A stretch of 64,000 nt of DNA from NCBI RefSeq assembly GCF_003334765.1, contig NZ_QOWT01000002.1. The stretch is one strand, 5' to 3'. A model generated the notes under the pieces. That model made no database searches. It worked only from the letters and a program-made list of their open reading frames with translations, and was not told the DNA's origin. The translations under genes and the position numbers were made by a program. Source of the DNA: Escherichia coli. GTDB lineage: Bacteria; Pseudomonadota; Gammaproteobacteria; Enterobacterales; Enterobacteriaceae. Below, one piece after another: positions 2,385 to 57,008 of the stretch; within the stretch, counting starts at the first letter, position 1; each line of letters opens with the position of its first letter.

Positions 2385-5300
2385 TTACCATTTCACCGTC
2401 ATCGACAAAAACCCTGCCGTCTGGGCAAAATCATCACTCCCTTTCTGCCACGCCACGCTGCCGCGCAGGGACACTCGCTGACTGATATTGCCCGTGACTC
2501 CCACTTTTATTTCACCCCGTTGCTTCACCGCATCGTCACTGATAGTGCTGCCATCCTCTTCAATTTCCGTCGAATGGGGATCGTGATAATAATTCAGATC
2601 TAATGTTGGTATGACATGAACAGCGGTACGCCATTCGCTGTGTAAACCCAGCCGCGTCTGAATATCATCACCCTGCGATTGTGACACGCGCGCACGGTTA
2701 GCGGCGGTAAAATCATCCTGCTGCACGCCCTGATAAATCACCTGCGCCTGCGGTTCAATCACCACACCACGCCCCGGTAACCACTGATACCCCGCCTCCA
2801 GCGAGGCGATAATCCCCGACGAGTGGTAATGATCTGTGCCATCTTCTTGTTCGGAAACATCATTGCTAAACCACGCGTATTGCAGCCAGCTATCCAGCCA
2901 GGCCCCTTGCTTCTGATTACCGTGCTGAAACCAGCTTGATGTCAGCCCAACGGCATAACCGTGGTTCTGGTTATCGGCGCGAGTTCCGGTCATATTCGAG
3001 CGGCTGTCGCCCTGGTTATCGCTGTAGCCACCAACAATCCCAAGCATCCACTCGCCATCCGTGCCCCAGCGCCCGCTAAACAGATCGCCGCTAAGTTGCA
3101 CCGTAGAAGTGTCTTCATGTTGAGCCAGTTGCCCCGCTGCTGTGTAATGATAATCTCCGCCGATAACACGTAAATTCAGCGTCTGACCATCGCCACCTGC
3201 GTGATCGCGTCGCTCCATCATAAACGCCTGATTTGCCGCCCGCAGGTTATTGAGATAACCGCCAACTTTGGCATTCAACACCGGCTGGTAAGCAGGCGTA
3301 GGTTCCGGGTCGGGTGTTGGATCAGGATCCGGCGTGGGATCGGGAGTCGGGTCTGGATCAGGTGGCGATGGCGGCGTTACTTCTTGCGATCGCAGATACC
3401 AGTCGTTGTTATCTTCCACCAGCGTGTAGTCATACGCTCCCATATTGACGTAGCCGCTGCCTGCCAGACTGAACTGCGCATTGTTTTGAAACTGCGTGGG
3501 ATCAGCTGCGAAATCAACCACTTTAATGCCTGTCGATGTCGGCTCACCAATCCCTGTAATGGAGTTAACCACCACAGTTGTGTTGCCAGCAGTATTACCG
3601 TTCATCACCAATTGATCGCTTACCGAGTCATCGCCGTTTAATTCGCTATCGAGCAGTAGCGTACCGCCGCCGGTATAATCACCGTTTACCGTCAGCGTAT
3701 CGCCAGCGACGCCATTTTGCAGGCTAACCGCACCGGACGTATTGGTCAGATTGCCATTAACCGTCACGTTGGAAAGATAAGTCAGGCTGTCAGTTTCAAG
3801 GTTGGTATTAAGCTCACCTGTCAACGTCACACCATCGGTGGCATTCACCAGCGTCCCATCGCCGTTAAATAGTGAGGCATTAAGGGCGACGGAAGTATCC
3901 TGCCCGGTCAGGCGCAAAACCGTACCATCGCTGATGTCGATAGTGCCGCTGGAAATAGCATCAATTGACTGAATATCCTGATCCGCGCCAGTAACGAACG
4001 TTGCCCCATCACCAACCCACAGTGACGAAGCATAAGGAAGGATATCAGCAACATCACCTTTCAGGGTGCCTTCTTCGACACGTACCGCCGACTGCGTTGT
4101 ACCGCTGGCGGTCAGCTCCAGTGTACCAGCCCCCGTTTTAGTCAATGTGCTACCCTCATCCTGATGCTGCCCGCTGCTGTCAGCCATCAGTGCGCCCCAC
4201 TGCGTGTCTACCCCCGCATCAACTGCCACTTCACCGTCGGCGCGCATTTCAATATCACGTCCGTGGCCTGCCGCATCTGAACGCGTGTCAACGTCGGAGG
4301 TAATCTCCATCACGCTTTCTTGTTGCTTATCGGTAAAGATAACCTGGCGGTTATAGTGGGTATCTCCAAGCTGCGAGTTGTCGCTCACCATCAGCGTACC
4401 GGAGGCGATTTGTGTTGTGCCCAAATAACTATTATTGTTTGCCAGACTTACCTGCCCGTCGCTCGCATCGACCACCACGTAGACGCCATCTTTCCCGTCG
4501 CCGCCGATATGCAAATTGTCGCCACCTGCAAGATCTACCACATCCTGACTGCCGATAACCGTTCCGCTGCTGCCACTGACTTCAAGGCCATCGTTGTATG
4601 ATGTGCCGCTCTGCCAGGTGGAGAAATCAGAGAGATCGAGCACACCGCCGTTTAACACGATCGACTGCGGATCGTCCTGGAGAGCGGTAAGATCTGCCGC
4701 GTCGCCTTCCAGCGAAAGCACCGCACCATCATCAACGACTATATCGCCGGTTAGCGCCATCGACTGCGCCCCTGCCAGCACGTAGCTGCCGTTTTGCGCA
4801 ATGGTGAGCTGACCAGCACCTTCGATGATGCCAGCAAAACTGCCCTGATTAACAGTAACGTTGCCACCAGCATCGATATTTAAAGTGCCATTCTGAAAGC
4901 CCGTCAATGCGTGCACAAAAGTTTGTTGGGTCGAGCCAACGTTTAGCTCAGCCTGATTCTGATACTGATCAATACTCCCTATCGTCAGACCGTAGCAGTC
5001 TTGCGGATCGTCCTGGCAATGCGTATCGCCGACATTCATCAGGGAGTTGCTGCGGCCCAGGGTAACTTCACCGTTTTCAATCTGCATCTCACCAGTAAAG
5101 TCATTGTTATCTGCATTAAGTACCAGATCGCCGGAACCTGTTTTGGTGATTAACCCGGTACCAGCAATAGAGTCAACAGCTCCGTCATTCTCTGTATTGC
5201 CAATAACCAGCGTTTTTCCGTCGGCAATATCAAAGGTAACTTCACTTAAGCCGAGATACATAAAGCCACCCGCCGCAGAGGAAGGACCATCTCCATAGCC

Positions 5301-6131
5301 TGCTGCGCTATTGTTCTCATCGACTAACACGCCTCCGTTCTGGCTGTAGCTGTCATCAACAGAAATATCAATAAGATAGGGAGCCGTCACGCTATTGGTA
5401 TATATCGCCCCGCCATAACCTTCGGCAGTGTTATTTGTAAAGGCAGTGTTATTTACTATCGTATAACCTGAAGGATGCTTGCTGTCGCTATTATTATCGG
5501 TAACATCGATTGCCCCGCCATCGCCATCACTGTAACTTGTTGATGTATATGCCTGGTTGTTATCAAAAATAACATCACTTAAATAAACGTCATTATTAAT
5601 GGTATAAATTGCGCCACCTTTGCCATCATTAGCGATGTTATTGCGAAACATGGCGTTAGTGACACGTAAATCGACGGCACCAGTATCGTTAGTACCAGAA
5701 GAATAGATTGCGCCACCATAGCCGCCTGCGACGTTACCGGAAAAAATAACATCAGTAAGATTCAGCGTTGAGTTTTCTTTAGCAAATATGGCCCCGCCGT
5801 TATTATATTCTCCTGTAACGGTGTTATTGGCAAACAGAGTCATTCCAGTTTCATTTTCTGGTAATAGTGAAAATTCCGCTCCTTGTTGCAAAAATACGGC
5901 CCCACCGCTGGCGTTATTGGTCATATCCGAAAAAACCAGCCATTGCCCATCAGCGATACTCCAGTCCTGCGTAATGCCTGAAAGGCTTTGCCTGCTGGCC
6001 TGACAACTCGCTTTGACATCATATCCCTGGCATGAATCAGTGACCGCCGCGACACCGTTAGCAGAGAAAAGAGATGCAATCATTGACGGGAGTAAAGATA
6101 AATACTCCTTGCGTAGAAAGATAATCCGCAT
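2385..6131 (-). CDS. yfaL: AIDA-I-type autotransporter adhesin (1248 aa in this window)
   Basis: Track ORF 2385..6131; signal peptide, long G/N/T-rich beta-helical passenger with repeated GGAIY motifs, Pro-rich PDPTPDP linker, C-terminal beta-barrel ending in W. Confidence 0.92.
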   Translation of the reverse strand: MRIIFLRKEYLSLLPSMIASLFSANGVAAVTDSCQGYDVKASCQASRQSLSGITQDWSIADGQWLVFSDMTNNASGGAVFLQQGAEFSLLPENETGMTLFANNTVTGEYNNGGAIFAKENSTLNLTDVIFSGNVAGGYGGAIYSSGTNDTGAVDLRVTNAMFRNNIANDGKGGAIYTINNDVYLSDVIFDNNQAYTSTSYSDGDGGAIDVTDNNSDSKHPSGYTIVNNTAFTNNTAEGYGGAIYTNSVTAPYLIDISVDDSYSQNGGVLVDENNSAAGYGDGPSSAAGGFMYLGLSEVTFDIADGKTLVIGNTENDGAVDSIAGTGLITKTGSGDLVLNADNNDFTGEMQIENGEVTLGRSNSLMNVGDTHCQDDPQDCYGLTIGSIDQYQNQAELNVGSTQQTFVHALTGFQNGTLNIDAGGNVTVNQGSFAGIIEGAGQLTIAQNGSYVLAGAQSMALTGDIVVDDGAVLSLEGDAADLTALQDDPQSIVLNGGVLDLSDFSTWQSGTSYNDGLEVSGSSGTVIGSQDVVDLAGGDNLHIGGDGKDGVYVVVDASDGQVSLANNNSYLGTTQIASGTLMVSDNSQLGDTHYNRQVIFTDKQQESVMEITSDVDTRSDAAGHGRDIEMRADGEVAVDAGVDTQWGALMADSSGQHQDEGSTLTKTGAGTLELTASGTTQSAVRVEEGTLKGDVADILPYASSLWVGDGATFVTGADQDIQSIDAISSGTIDISDGTVLRLTGQDTSVALNASLFNGDGTLVNATDGVTLTGELNTNLETDSLTYLSNVTVNGNLTNTSGAVSLQNGVAGDTLTVNGDYTGGGTLLLDSELNGDDSVSDQLVMNGNTAGNTTVVVNSITGIGEPTSTGIKVVDFAADPTQFQNNAQFSLAGSGYVNMGAYDYTLVEDNNDWYLRSQEVTPPSPPDPDPTPDPTPDPDPTPDPEPTPAYQPVLNAKVGGYLNNLRAANQAFMMERRDHAGGDGQTLNLRVIGGDYHYTAAGQLAQHEDTSTVQLSGDLFSGRWGTDGEWMLGIVGGYSDNQGDSRSNMTGTRADNQNHGYAVGLTSSWFQHGNQKQGAWLDSWLQYAWFSNDVSEQEDGTDHYHSSGIIASLEAGYQWLPGRGVVIEPQAQVIYQGVQQDDFTAANRARVSQSQGDDIQTRLGLHSEWRTAVHVIPTLDLNYYHDPHSTEIEEDGSTISDDAVKQRGEIKVGVTGNISQRVSLRGSVAWQKGSDDFAQTAGFLSMTVKW
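3296..3372 (-). repeat. in-frame Pro-Asp/Thr microsatellite-like repeat inside yfaL (encodes PPSPPDPDPTPDPTPDPDPTPDPEPTP)
   Basis: Plus strand shows iterated ggatc(a/g)gg / gggtc(g/t)gg units; translated linker between passenger and barrel. Confidence 0.75.
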
Positions 6132-6664
6132 ATTAATCTAACCATCATTTTCTATAAGACGGCGTATTTAATCGCATTATACGATATGGAATATCTTTCT
6201 TTTGTAAATTGTTCAACCCGGTGCAATGGCTATTTTGTTATTATTTGATGAATAATATCAGTGCGTCATAATTCAAGTTAATAACCTTCAGGGATATCAG
6301 TTATATTTAAACTAAATTAAAGTCATGAATAATTTTCTTATAATATAAGGTAAATTAACAAAATGGCTTAGCATTTAACAATAACCGAATAGAAAACAAC
6401 CATTTCGCCATCAACAATCTCTTACATTCGCTTATATATTGACCACAACTGATACATCAGATTATGTGATGACTCGTGCTTAGATCAATTTTTGCAATCA
6501 TTAGCAAAAAGATTAATAAACCATCTATATCAATTTATCTAACCTATTATGCCGTTCAAGAAATCGCCGAACAGTTATTTTTAACAAATTTTTCTCTTCC
6601 CATTGACTTTCCCGGACACCTTGTCTGACCTAAGGTGCGCGAAAGCCACTTTTTCCTTCCTGAG

Positions 6665-9120: not shown

Positions 9121-9323
<203 letters not shown>

Positions 9324-10737: not shown

Positions 10738-10780
10738 GTAGTGCCAGATACAACGCTTATGCGTCTTATCTGGCCTACAA
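10738..10780. repeat. REP palindromic unit
   Basis: gtagtgccagatacaacgcttatgcgtcttatctggcctacaa between convergent yfaE and inaA. Confidence 0.7.
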
Positions 10781-52009: not shown

Positions 52010-53467
52010 TTACATCAGCGGCATTGCCAAACGCACAATGCTAATCAGCGGTTGTGGCCATACACCCAGCACCAGTACCAACAGTGCAGAGATCAGCACA
52101 ACGATACCGCCCGCGCTGTACTGCCAGTTTGATGGTGCATCGCGACCCGGTTGTTCCGGGGCGTGAAGATACAGGCTCACCGCCACGCGCAGGTAGTAGT
52201 AGAGGCCGATTGCCGAACCGACAACCACGGCACCCACCAGCCACCACAAGTGTGCCTGGACACCGACCGCCAGCACGTAGAACTTACCGATAAAGCCCAG
52301 CGTCATCGGGATACCGGCCAGAGACAGCATCATCACCGTCATCACTGCCGCGAGGATCGGACGATGCCAGAACAGACCGCGGTAAGAGAACAGGGAATCA
52401 GCATCCGGGCCACGATACGGGCTGGACATCAGGCTGACCACGCCGAACGCGCCGAGGCTGCTGAACAGATAACCGGCCAGGTAAACCCCTACCGCTTCCA
52501 TCGACATCTCGCCGGTTTGCAGCGCAATCAGCGCTACCAGCAGATAGCCGAGGTGAGAGATAGATGAGTAACCGAGCAGACGTTTGATATTGGTCTGGCT
52601 CAGCGCCATCAGGTTACCGAAGATGATGGAGGCAAAGGCGATAATCGCCAGCACCACGCGAATCGCTTCGCTGTCACCCACCGGTGCGTAGAGGAACAGA
52701 CGCATCACCACACCGAAGATAGCGATTTTGCTCGCCGTCGCCAGGAAAGTGGAAACCGGCGCAGGCGCGCCCTGGTATACGTCTGGCGTCCACAGGTGGA
52801 ACGGCACCAGAGAGAGTTTGAAGCCGAGGCCAACAATCATCAGGCCGAAACCTGCCAGCAACAGCGGCTCGTTGAGCATACCGTCGCCAAGGTTTTTACC
52901 CAACGCGACAAACGACAGGTCGCCAGACTGCGCATACACCAGCGCCATACCAAACAGCAGGAAAGAAGACGCTGCGGCAGAAAGGATGGTGTATTTGATA
53001 CTGGCTTCCAGTGAACGTTTCTGGCGGAAAGCGTAACCGACCAGGCCAAACAGCGGCAAAGAGATCAGTTCGATACCGAGGAACAGAGACGCCAGATGGT
53101 TGGCATTCGCCAGCAGGATCCCGCCCAGCGCGGCAATTAACACCAACAGGTAGAACTCATCCTTGTTGTCGTTATAGCCTTCAAGCCACGGGTAGGCGAA
53201 AGTACAGGTGGCGAGGCTCGCCAACAATACCAGCCCGGTGTAAAGCATGGCGAAACCATCAACGCGCATCAGCGGCGTAACGTCCATAGCGCCCGCCTGG
53301 CCAACAAACCAGAGCGAAACCAGCGCCGCGTTAAGCCCAATAACCGAGAGCGTAGCGTTGAGGAAATGATTGCGTCGCCACGCAATGGAGAGCATCACAA
53401 CCACCACCGTCAAGCCGACGATCAGCAACGGTAGCAGTGCGATCAGGTTTTGTGGAGTTATTGTCAT
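52010..53467 (-). CDS. nuoN: NADH:quinone oxidoreductase subunit N
   Basis: Track ORF 52010..53467 (485 aa), polytopic antiporter-like subunit. Confidence 0.95.
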
Positions 53468-53473
53468 GGCGAT

Positions 53474-55003
53474 TTACGGCCTTGTAGTAGTAACGGAATT
53501 AACAAACCACTGCTGGATATTGCCAATCGCGGAGTGCGAGGTATCCAGAATCGGCTGCGGATAGAAGCCCAGCAGTACCAGCAGCACCACCAGCAACAGG
53601 ATCATAAACAGCTCACGCAGCGACATCCCTGGCAGTTCCTGGCTGGCAATCTGGCTTTTCGCTTTACCGAAGTAAGCGCGATGTAACATCGCCAGCGAAT
53701 AAACAGATGCAAAGACCAGCCCAAAGGTAGAGATAACGGTAATCACCGGTACAACCTGGAAGCTGCCGAACAGAATCATAAATTCGCCGACGAAGTTACC
53801 GGTGCCAGGCATCCCAAGCGTTGCCACCGCAAAGAACAGCGACAGTGCTGGCAGCCATTTCATCTTGCTCCACAGACCGCCCATCATGCGCATGTCGCGG
53901 GTATGGATACGTTCATAAAGCTGACCACAAAGAATAAACAGACCCGCCGCCGACAAACCGTGCGCAATCATCTGGATTACCGCGCCCTGGTAGGCCAACT
54001 GGCTGCCGGTGTAGATAGCAATCAGCACGAAGCCCATGTGGGAAACCGAGGTGTAGGCGATCAGACGTTTGATATCGGTCTGGGCGAAGGCCATCCACGC
54101 ACCGTAGAAGATGCCGATAACACCCAGCCACATAGCAATTGGCGCGAACTCTGCCGACGCGTTCGGGAACAGCGGCAGGGAGAAACGCAGCAAACCGTAA
54201 GCGGCAGTTTTCAGCAAGATCCCCGCGAGGTCAACGGAACCGGCGGTCGGAGCCTGGGAGTGCGCATCCGGCAGCCAGCCATGCAGCGGAACCACCGGCA
54301 TTTTGACTGCGAAGGCGATGAAGAAGCCCAGCATTAACAGGTATTCCACACCACTGGACATTGGCGTATTCAGCAGCTCTTCATAGTTGAAGGTCCAGAC
54401 GCCGGTCGCATTGTAGTGAACAAAAACCAGCGCCAGGATGGCAATCAACATCACCAGGCCACTCGCCTGGGTGTAAATGAAGAACTTGGTTGCCGCCGTG
54501 ATACGCGTTTTACCGTCAGAGGCTTTATGCCCCCACAGTGCGATCAGGAAGTACATCGGCACCAGCATCATTTCCCAGAAGAAGAAGAACAGGAACATGT
54601 CGATGGCAAGGAACACGCCGATAACGCCGCCCAGGATCCACATCAGGTTGAGGTGGAAGAAGCCCTGATATTTTTCGATCTCTTTCCACGAACATAGTAC
54701 CGCCAGCACACCGAGCAGACCGGTCAGCACGACCATCAGCAGCGACAGCCCGTCAATGGCGAGATGAATAGAGATACCAAAACGCGGGATCCACGGCATG
54801 TCGAATTCAGACTGCCACTGCGGAATTCCGGCGGATTGCGTCAGTGAATAACCGCCCTGCAACCACAGTTGCAGCGACAGCGCCAGCGTCAATCCCATGG
54901 TGATCAGCGCGATCCAGCGTGGCACCTTGACGCCAAAGCGTTCGGTCTGCCAGCACAGGAAGCCGCCAATAAAGGGAATTAATATTAGCCAGGGTAGTAA
55001 CAT
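53474..55003 (-). CDS. nuoM: NADH:quinone oxidoreductase subunit M
   Basis: Track ORF 53474..55003 (509 aa). Confidence 0.96.
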   Translation of the reverse strand: MLLPWLILIPFIGGFLCWQTERFGVKVPRWIALITMGLTLALSLQLWLQGGYSLTQSAGIPQWQSEFDMPWIPRFGISIHLAIDGLSLLMVVLTGLLGVLAVLCSWKEIEKYQGFFHLNLMWILGGVIGVFLAIDMFLFFFFWEMMLVPMYFLIALWGHKASDGKTRITAATKFFIYTQASGLVMLIAILALVFVHYNATGVWTFNYEELLNTPMSSGVEYLLMLGFFIAFAVKMPVVPLHGWLPDAHSQAPTAGSVDLAGILLKTAAYGLLRFSLPLFPNASAEFAPIAMWLGVIGIFYGAWMAFAQTDIKRLIAYTSVSHMGFVLIAIYTGSQLAYQGAVIQMIAHGLSAAGLFILCGQLYERIHTRDMRMMGGLWSKMKWLPALSLFFAVATLGMPGTGNFVGEFMILFGSFQVVPVITVISTFGLVFASVYSLAMLHRAYFGKAKSQIASQELPGMSLRELFMILLLVVLLVLLGFYPQPILDTSHSAIGNIQQWFVNSVTTTRP

Positions 55004-55092
55004 GGCGATCTTTATTCCTTGTAAAAGTCCCGTCAGGACCGGATTTTCAACGAATTCTCACGACAGAAAATTCTCTTCGGACTGGGGGTAGT

Positions 55093-55129
55093 GTCGGATG
55101 CACCGCGAAGGCGGCTTATCCGACCTACG
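55093..55129. repeat. REP-like palindromic unit inside the nuoL-nuoM intergenic spacer
   Basis: gtcggatgcaccgcgaaggcggcttatccgacctacg; inverted ends GTCGGAT / ATCCGAC; resembles REP consensus. Confidence 0.55.
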
Positions 55130-55166
55130 TTCTTATATGCCCAGGGGCAATCCCACAATCCTTAAC

Positions 55167-57008
55167 TCAACGCAGTACCATCAACAGTGCCAGCACCACG
55201 ACCGCACCGATGCTCATGGATGCCACATACCAGCGCAGATAGCCGTTCTCACTTAACAGCAGACCTTTACCTGCAAAGCGGGAAAGGACAGCCGGGATGT
55301 TCATCATTGAGTTCAGCGGATCGCGTTTCAGCAACCAGGCAATACCCAGGAACGGCTTGACGAACACTTTGTCATACAGCCAGTCAAATCCCCAGGCGTT
55401 GTACCACCAGGTGCCCAGCAGACGGCCCGGCGCACTGTTGGCGATGGAGGTCACCAGAGTACGTTTACCCAGCCACAGCCAGGCTGCCAGCAGAATGCCG
55501 ACCACCGCGACCACGCCAGAGGTAATTTCCAGGGTCAACATGCTGCCGTGCGCCAGTTCCGTCGTTTGCGGAAGCACGCCCTGCAGCGGCGGTACAATCA
55601 GTGCGCCAACGAAGGTGGAAAGGATCAGCAGCACAATCAGCGGCAGGCTGTGAGTTACCCCTTTCACGGCGTGAGCGTGAATTTGTTCTTTTCCGTGGAA
55701 GACGATGAAAATCATACGGAAGGTGTAGAGCGAGGTCATAAACGCACCGACCAGACCTGCCACCATCAGATTGATATGACCATTCGCCATCGCACCCGCG
55801 AGGATCTCATCCTTACTGAAGAAGCCCGCAGTGACCAGCGGTAGTGCCGACAGTGCTGCGCCGCCCACCAGGAAGCAGAGATAAACCAGCGGAATAGATT
55901 TACGCAGACCGCCCATCTTGAAGATGTTCTGTTCGTGATGGCAGGCCAGAATGACGGAACCGGATGCCAGGAACAGCAGCGCTTTAAAGAACGCGTGGGT
56001 CATCAAGTGGAAAATCGCCGCATCCCATGCCTGCACGCCAAGCGCGAGGAACATGTAGCCAATCTGGCTCATGGTAGAGTAAGCGAGAACACGTTTGATG
56101 TCGGTCTGTACCAGCGCGGCAAAACCGGCCAGCAGCAGCGTAACCGCCCCGACAATACCCACCAGATGCAGAACTTCCGGCGTCATCAGGAACAGGCCGT
56201 GGGTACGGGCGATCAGGTAGACACCCGCGGTTACCATGGTTGCGGCGTGGATCAGCGCGGAGACAGGCGTCGGGCCCGCCATCGCGTCGGCAAGCCATGT
56301 CTGCAACGGCAACTGCGCAGATTTACCGACCGCACCGCCCAGCAGCATCAGCGTCGCCCACATCAGCATGTTATTGCCGTCAGCAAAGTGCGCTGGTGCC
56401 AGTTCCACCATTTCGCGGAAGTTCAGGGTGCCCAGTTCGTTGTAAAGAATGAACAGTGCGAAAGCGAGGAACACGTCACCCACACGGGTCACGACGAACG
56501 CTTTCATTGCCGCTGCGCCATTCTTCGGATCGGTGTAATAGAACCCGATCAGCAGATAGGAGCACAGGCCCACGCCTTCCCAGCCGAGGTACATCAGCAG
56601 CAGGTTGTCGGCAAGCACCAGAACCACCATGCTGGCGATGAACAGGTTGGTGTAAGCGAAGAAGCGAGAGTAGCCCTCTTCACCGCGCATATACCAGGAG
56701 GCGTACATGTGAATAAGGAAACCCACACCAGTGACCACCGAGAGCATGGTCAGCGACAGGCCGTCCAGCACCAGGTTAAAACCGATGTTAAAGTCGCCTA
56801 CCGACATCCACGTCCACAGCGGCTGGCTGTATGTCTGCTCGCCGTTAGCGAAGAAATCAACGCCGATAAAGGCGGTTACCAGCGCCGCCAGGCCCACAGA
56901 GCCTACGCCGACGATCGCCGAGACGTTTTCAGACCAGCGCCCACGGGAGAATGCCAGCAGGACGAAGCCAATCAATGGCAAAATAATGGTTAAGGCAAGC
57001 ATGTTCAT
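55167..57008 (-). CDS. nuoL: NADH:quinone oxidoreductase subunit L
   Basis: Track ORF 55167..57008 (613 aa). Confidence 0.96.

Follow-up and report, generated by a model that had tools for sequence, protein, structure and literature searches.

A singleton REP element, polymorphic across strains, in the nuoL-nuoM spacer of Escherichia coli

Here we show that the palindrome between nuoL and nuoM in the nuo operon of Escherichia coli is a genuine singleton REP, an identity that is secure, and that the REP at this junction is subject to turnover, being polymorphic across strains and species. The element is probably a tolerated insertion at a permissive junction, where any influence it has on mRNA decay would be modest at most, and we infer that it is close to neutral; a regulatory role in the expression of complex I is plausible only by analogy with other systems. 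The nuo REP is of a known kind and its copy is unchanged in the K-12 reference genome, and as a finding it matters little.

The stretch of DNA analysed (the window, 64,000 nucleotides) comes from the E. coli chromosome. By BLAST, 371 bp around the spacer have a match in 5424 of the 5426 complete E. coli genomes, where the flanking genes carry the annotations nuoL and nuoM. According to the open reading frame (ORF) listing, the nuo operon lies on the minus strand of the window, and nuoL and nuoM are 163 bp apart, far more than any other neighbours in the operon, theirs being the one nuo junction that is not tightly packed. The earlier note's observation that most other nuo genes abut or overlap is borne out by the same listing, in which the remaining gaps run from -4 to 46 bp (E/F -4, F/G 46, G/H -4, H/I 14, I/J 11, J/K -4, K/L -4 and M/N 6 bp). 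An identical spacer occupies positions 2393042-2393204 of K-12 MG1655 (MG1655 coordinate = window coordinate + 2338038). The relevant features, in order of transcription, are:

55167-57008, minus strand: nuoL (ORF, 613 aa)
55167-55169, minus strand: nuoL stop codon TGA (from ORF 55167-57008)
55004-55166, minus strand: nuoL-nuoM intercistronic spacer, 163 nt, part of the nuo mRNA (from ORF ends, K-12 identity and fold)
55079-55161, minus strand: predicted compound distal stem-loop, with the REP in the loop of its outer helix (MFE structures)
55088-55128, minus strand: single Y-type REP (motif enrichment, alignment with seven window REPs, RNA hairpin of -22.1 kcal/mol, dispersed family)
55042-55073, minus strand: conserved leader motif GAATTTT...GAGAATTCGTTGAAAATC (core found in 24 of 79 species' spacers)
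55026-55040, minus strand: predicted small hairpin GGTCC-TGACG-GGACT, adjoining the nuoM ribosome-binding site on its upstream side (RNAalifold)
55015-55020, minus strand: Shine-Dalgarno-like AAGGAA for nuoM (sequence reading)
55001-55003, minus strand: nuoM start codon ATG (from ORF 53474-55003)
53474-55003, minus strand: nuoM (ORF, 509 aa)
52010-53467, minus strand: nuoN (ORF listing)

Neither promoter-like nor terminator-like sites were found in a scan of the spacer, and when the K-12 and minority-allele loci were compared with Rfam, the sole match was a chance one to a microRNA (E = 0.77). A 41-codon TTG ORF within the spacer (55033-55158, minus strand) was rejected as coding, as it spans the variable REP and contains a 2-nt insertion in strain AR13438. 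The RefSeq annotation of K-12 holds no repeat feature at the spacer; it holds none at a control stretch (5000-6500) either, which is presumably the site of an older annotated REP, so its silence at the spacer is probably uninformative. Literature searches turned up no report specific to a REP at nuoL-nuoM.

REPs are imperfect palindromes of about 35-40 nt with the consensus head GCC(G/T)GATG and tail CTTATC(C/A)GGCCTAC. When the tail motif CTTATCMGRCCTAC was counted in the 64-kb window with up to one mismatch and compared with dinucleotide shuffles, eight occurrences were found against 0.05 expected, and none of 100 shuffles reached eight or more. The nuo palindrome carries this tail with no mismatch, together with the head GTCGGATGC; the remaining seven matches are canonical REPs, with which it aligns over the head, the tail and the CTAC end, giving 22 invariant columns. 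Elsewhere in the window the canonical REPs are arranged, at approximate positions, as an inverted pair (2283-2363), a four-REP BIME (9121-9288) and a single REP (10744-10778). A 63-nt query centred on the nuo REP found related sequence at a median of at least 20 places per genome across all 5426 E. coli genomes. The 163-bp spacer was also searched for a second REP or a BIME pair, and it holds one REP only, with no inverted partner. What the earlier note had described as REP-like, with inverted ends GTCGGAT/ATCCGAC, is therefore a real REP.

The element reads GTAGTGTCGGATGCACCGCGAAGGCGGCTTATCCGACCTAC on the plus strand (55088-55128) and GTAGGTCGGATAAGCCGCCTTCGCGGTGCATCCGACACTAC in the RNA sense, starting 38 nt past the nuoL stop codon and ending 84 nt short of the nuoM ATG. 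Its inverted-repeat arms (55093-55106 and 55111-55124) are 14 nt long, 79% complementary and separated by 4 nt, with perfect outer segments GTCGGAT (55093-55099) and ATCCGAC (55118-55124). The span given for it earlier, 55093-55129, extends at its far end over the CTAC tail (55125-55128, plus strand) and one further base; the full element is 55088-55128. A second tetranucleotide, GTAG, stands at 55088-55091. Y-type elements of the REP, or PU, family are said to go back to descriptions by Stern and by Gilson in 1984 and to the classification of Bachellier. The nuo copy resembles them in its head (G.CGGATGC), its tail (CTTATCCG.CCTAC), the asymmetry of its internal loop and the GTAG/CTAC end, and in being extragenic, transcribed and multi-copy. 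It is Y-like in its GGAT/ATCC; it differs from the type in that a compensated T:A pair replaces C:G in the lower stem and that the tip is CCGC-CUUC-GCGG in place of GGCG-UAAA-CGCC, and further in the extra GTAG on the other flank and in being a singleton outside any BIME.

In the mRNA sense, the REP is predicted to form a hairpin of -22.1 kcal/mol, at least as stable as those of the window's other REPs (-14 to -21 kcal/mol). The lower stem is predicted between 55118-55124 and 55093-55099, and the fold plan is that of the window's Y REPs, with a 7-bp lower stem, a 2x2 to 3x3 internal loop and an upper stem of 4-5 bp. Differences between E. coli strains within the REP stem (CCGC to CUGC or CCGU, GAC to GGC) are all compatible with G-U pairing, and one further C/U difference lies beside the upper stem. 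The stem changes are consistent with some constraint on the hairpin, and such a constraint could act at the DNA level, in recognition by a transposase; the nuo REP was presumably mobilised by a REP-associated transposase (RAYT).

The REP hairpin is itself predicted to be part of a larger structure. For the spacer as a whole the predicted fold has -57.9 kcal/mol (z = -3.5 relative to shuffles), and its first 94 nt form a predicted compound stem-loop of -42.4 kcal/mol, in which an outer helix pairs 55152-55161 with 55079-55088 around the REP. An equivalent outer helix is predicted around species-specific REPs in Klebsiella, Citrobacter and Superficieibacter (L014, L036, L021, L008), and because it recurs around different REPs in other genera, the models suggest that REPs were inserted into an older stem-loop. 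Downstream, the core of the leader motif, TTCGTTGAAA, recurs in the spacers of 24 of the 79 species regardless of their repeat content, with A for G at one locus, and an invariant motif, AATTCGTTGAAAATC (55042-55059), lies shortly upstream of the nuoM ribosome-binding site. For the small hairpin, RNAalifold on 12 sequences from several genera gave a 7-pair helix in which three of the seven pairs are kept through double changes; in many other genera an approximately 120-bp palindromic repeat lies inside this hairpin, either whole or in shortened form. The Shine-Dalgarno-like AAGGAA has a predicted pairing partner within the leader motif, the invariant AAUUC at 55051-55055, and in the 12-sequence comparison this outer AAUUC/GGAAU pairing showed no variation, which speaks neither for nor against it.

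Across 79 Enterobacterales species (loci L006-L085), the nuoL-nuoM spacer varies in length from 24 to 289 bp. Eight of these species have minimal, unstructured spacers of 24-41 bp, and a 76-bp form consists of the conserved motif, the small hairpin and the ribosome-binding site and nothing else. Longer spacers gain species-specific REPs directly after nuoL, singly or as inverted pairs and in either orientation (pairs occur in Citrobacter, L008, L010 and L014, and in Pseudescherichia, L027); the approximately 120-bp palindromic repeat, private hairpins and ERIC are further contents of the spacer, the last in canonical form in Serratia (L055, L056, L072, L080) with the core GACTGGGGTGAG. Among spacers of at least 70 bp, 57 of 71 have a more stable predicted fold than their shuffled versions (z < -2; median -3.07). 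Judged from these sequences, the nuoL-nuoM junction behaves as a permissive landing site at which Enterobacterales accumulate and replace palindromic repeats, and it looks like a hotspot of repeat insertion.

A similar replacement is found within E. coli. The REP-bearing spacer is present in 4699 genomes, and approximately 724 of the 5426 complete genomes (~13%), O157:H7 and E2348/69 among them, carry instead a 230-bp spacer that has no REP and no clear homology to the REP spacer. The central ~118 bp of this minority allele belong to a low-copy family of dispersed palindromes found at a median of 4 places per genome (about 4-6 copies). Its best relative in the K-12 lineage occupies the pheM-pheS leader, with the pheM attenuator on one side and pheS on the other (L086, 301-418, E. 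coli DH1). The repeat may be the "RSA" element of old K-12 annotation, which is 150 bp long and present in six copies in K-12 (PMC5172473). Its identity as ERIC was rejected: the best match was 13-14 of 22 positions, against chance matches of up to 15 of 22 in the window. The ERIC core used in this test was what we take to be the ERIC1R/ERIC2 primer sequences.

REP hairpins are documented as resisting 3'-5' exonucleases (review PMC6061677), and the earlier note had read the nuo element as a barrier of this kind that sets different mRNA stability for upstream and downstream genes. That the element is a true REP, lies in the polycistronic nuo transcript and has a stable predicted hairpin all stands; a differing stability of the flanking genes set by this copy is not supported. 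Mapping of 3' ends at the palindrome had been proposed as a check, and the curated Term-seq 3' ends of MG1655 under three conditions (PMC7815308) have no entry in 2393000-2393299, the interval containing the spacer, a negative of moderate weight since peaks were called above a threshold, in wild-type cells, and minor REP-protected species could be missed. The same data place 3' ends inside nuoN (2391429; window 53391), nuoL (2394829; 56791) and nuoG (2399938; 61900), the first two lying 76 nt from the start of nuoN and 217 nt from that of nuoL (PMC7815308). Differential stability set by the REP is argued against also by the 724 genomes without it and by the 24-289 bp range of spacers elsewhere.

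We therefore consider the REP to be, in all likelihood, a tolerated insertion at a permissive junction. It would sit in the loop of a larger stem-loop directly downstream of nuoL and, when transcribed, would form a hairpin of about -22 kcal/mol inside a compound structure of about -42 kcal/mol; after a downstream cut, by analogy with its family, this hairpin may slow PNPase or RNase II. Such an effect is probably small in nuo, and the REP would not be a conserved regulator of NuoL:NuoM output. This reading is supported by the unrelated 230-bp spacer of the 724 E. coli genomes, by the variety of spacers in 79 species, and by the presence of Term-seq ends elsewhere in nuo and their absence from the spacer. 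Against it stands the occurrence of a strong predicted hairpin right after nuoL in nearly every long spacer of other genera: gained again and again, a stem-loop of some kind may be selected for at this position and not just tolerated. The G-U-compatible stem changes among E. coli strains likewise count against it.

Several other explanations of the REP were weighed. It is unlikely, though worth some weight, that the REP is a working decay barrier within the operon, at which 3'-5' exonucleases would stall once an endonuclease had cut downstream, so that nuoA-L mRNA outlives nuoM-N and relative expression is tuned. The recurrence of a strong hairpin at nuoL-nuoM in most lineages, with structured spacers the rule, is the main support for such a role, alongside the stability of the nested nuo hairpin and the standing of REP hairpins as established exonuclease barriers (PMC6061677, citing Newbury 1987 and Khemici 2004); it is opposed by the Term-seq lists, which lack a spacer end despite calls in nuoN, nuoL and nuoG (PMC7815308), and by the absence of the REP from 13% of E. 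coli and the unstructured spacers of eight species. NuoL and NuoM are, moreover, single-copy subunits of one complex, complex I, whose subunits are equimolar, so no unequal output of the two is needed, and this too tells against a barrier. A broader version, in which the junction is a selectively maintained slot for structured RNA whose need for a stem-loop is met interchangeably by REPs, the ~120-bp repeat, ERIC or private hairpins, and in which spacer alleles move between genera by short-tract recombination, seems to us rather doubtful as a whole; the movement of whole alleles between genera is suggested by the 230-bp spacer, which is identical at 230 of 230 positions in E. coli and Salmonella enterica subsp. 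arizonae. If such a slot were real, the stem-loop might, for instance, make the distal genes for membrane subunits independent in their decay or translation.

The REP could also lower expression on its downstream or upstream side by partial attenuation of transcription or by stalling terminating ribosomes, which we hold to be very unlikely. It is the first structured element past the nuoL stop codon, and attenuation associated with BIMEs was reported by Espeli et al. 2001, as cited in PMC6061677; the nuo REP, however, is single, with no BIME pair, its hairpin is followed by CCCCAGUCCG and lacks the U-tract of an intrinsic terminator, and the table of Rho termination in PMC7815308 is without nuoA, nuoH, nuoJ, nuoK, nuoL, nuoM and nuoN. 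As for stalling, 38 nt separate the TGA from the first base of the REP. The distance at which REPs stall terminating ribosomes is reportedly within ~15 nt of the stop codon, in the 2015 work of Liang, Rudd and Deutscher, and the nuo REP lies outside that range. Action of the REP as DNA, whether by binding gyrase, IHF or DNA polymerase I or as a hotspot of recombination, is more improbable still: BIMEs bind all three proteins (review PMC3184786) and allele replacement by recombination is seen at the junction, but the REPs credited with such activities are clustered and have linker motifs, the nuo REP is partnerless, and the recombined tract swaps the whole spacer and does not begin at the REP. 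The probability that the palindrome arose by chance, with no family relationship, is negligible, as it has only its short length in its favour and is refuted by the motif enrichment, the alignment with REPs and the ~20 related places per genome.

A close parallel is with the REPs between malE and malF (Newbury et al. 1987, as cited in PMC6061677), which likewise lie between two cistrons of one operon and form a hairpin able to block 3'-5' exonucleases. The two cases differ in that mal needs unequal output, with the periplasmic binding protein in excess, and nuo does not, and in that the Term-seq data (PMC7815308) report no REP-anchored 3' end at nuoL-nuoM. Effects on the stability of flanking mRNA are also attributed, in review PMC3184786, to SMAG in Stenotrophomonas (Rocco 2010) and to ERIC in Yersinia (De Gregorio 2005). 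These too are palindromic repeats co-transcribed with genes, and ERIC occupies nuoL-nuoM in Serratia; they are nevertheless separate families, whose copy-number- and orientation-dependent effects are known from experiment, whereas the nuo REP is known from sequence. A single REP inside an operon calls for caution before function is read into it, because close relatives fill the same junction with unrelated repeats or leave it nearly empty, and because two non-homologous spacer alleles coexist in E. coli and in Salmonella. The natural swaps of spacer alleles do offer ready material on the effects of intercistronic palindromes in a stoichiometric complex.

The minority allele has a history of its own. 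The E. coli and S. enterica subsp. arizonae copies of the 230-bp spacer (L003, 305-534, and L004; L007, 971-1200) are part of an identical tract that reaches from within 9 nt of the nuoL stop codon to between nuoM positions 35 and 74. Beside it, the adjoining 300 nt of nuoL in minority-allele E. coli are 86% identical to Salmonella versus 99% to other E. coli. The sequences point to inter-genus recombination of a tract of ~300 bp, probably from a Salmonella-like donor into E. coli, since at nuoM positions 6, 15, 26 and 35 the tract in E. coli has the state common to both Salmonella alleles. Salmonella with the same NuoM protein carry two forms of the spacer (L093-L102): a 250-bp allele, made up of a Salmonella-type REP and the ~120-bp palindromic repeat, and the 230-bp allele that is common to E. 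coli.
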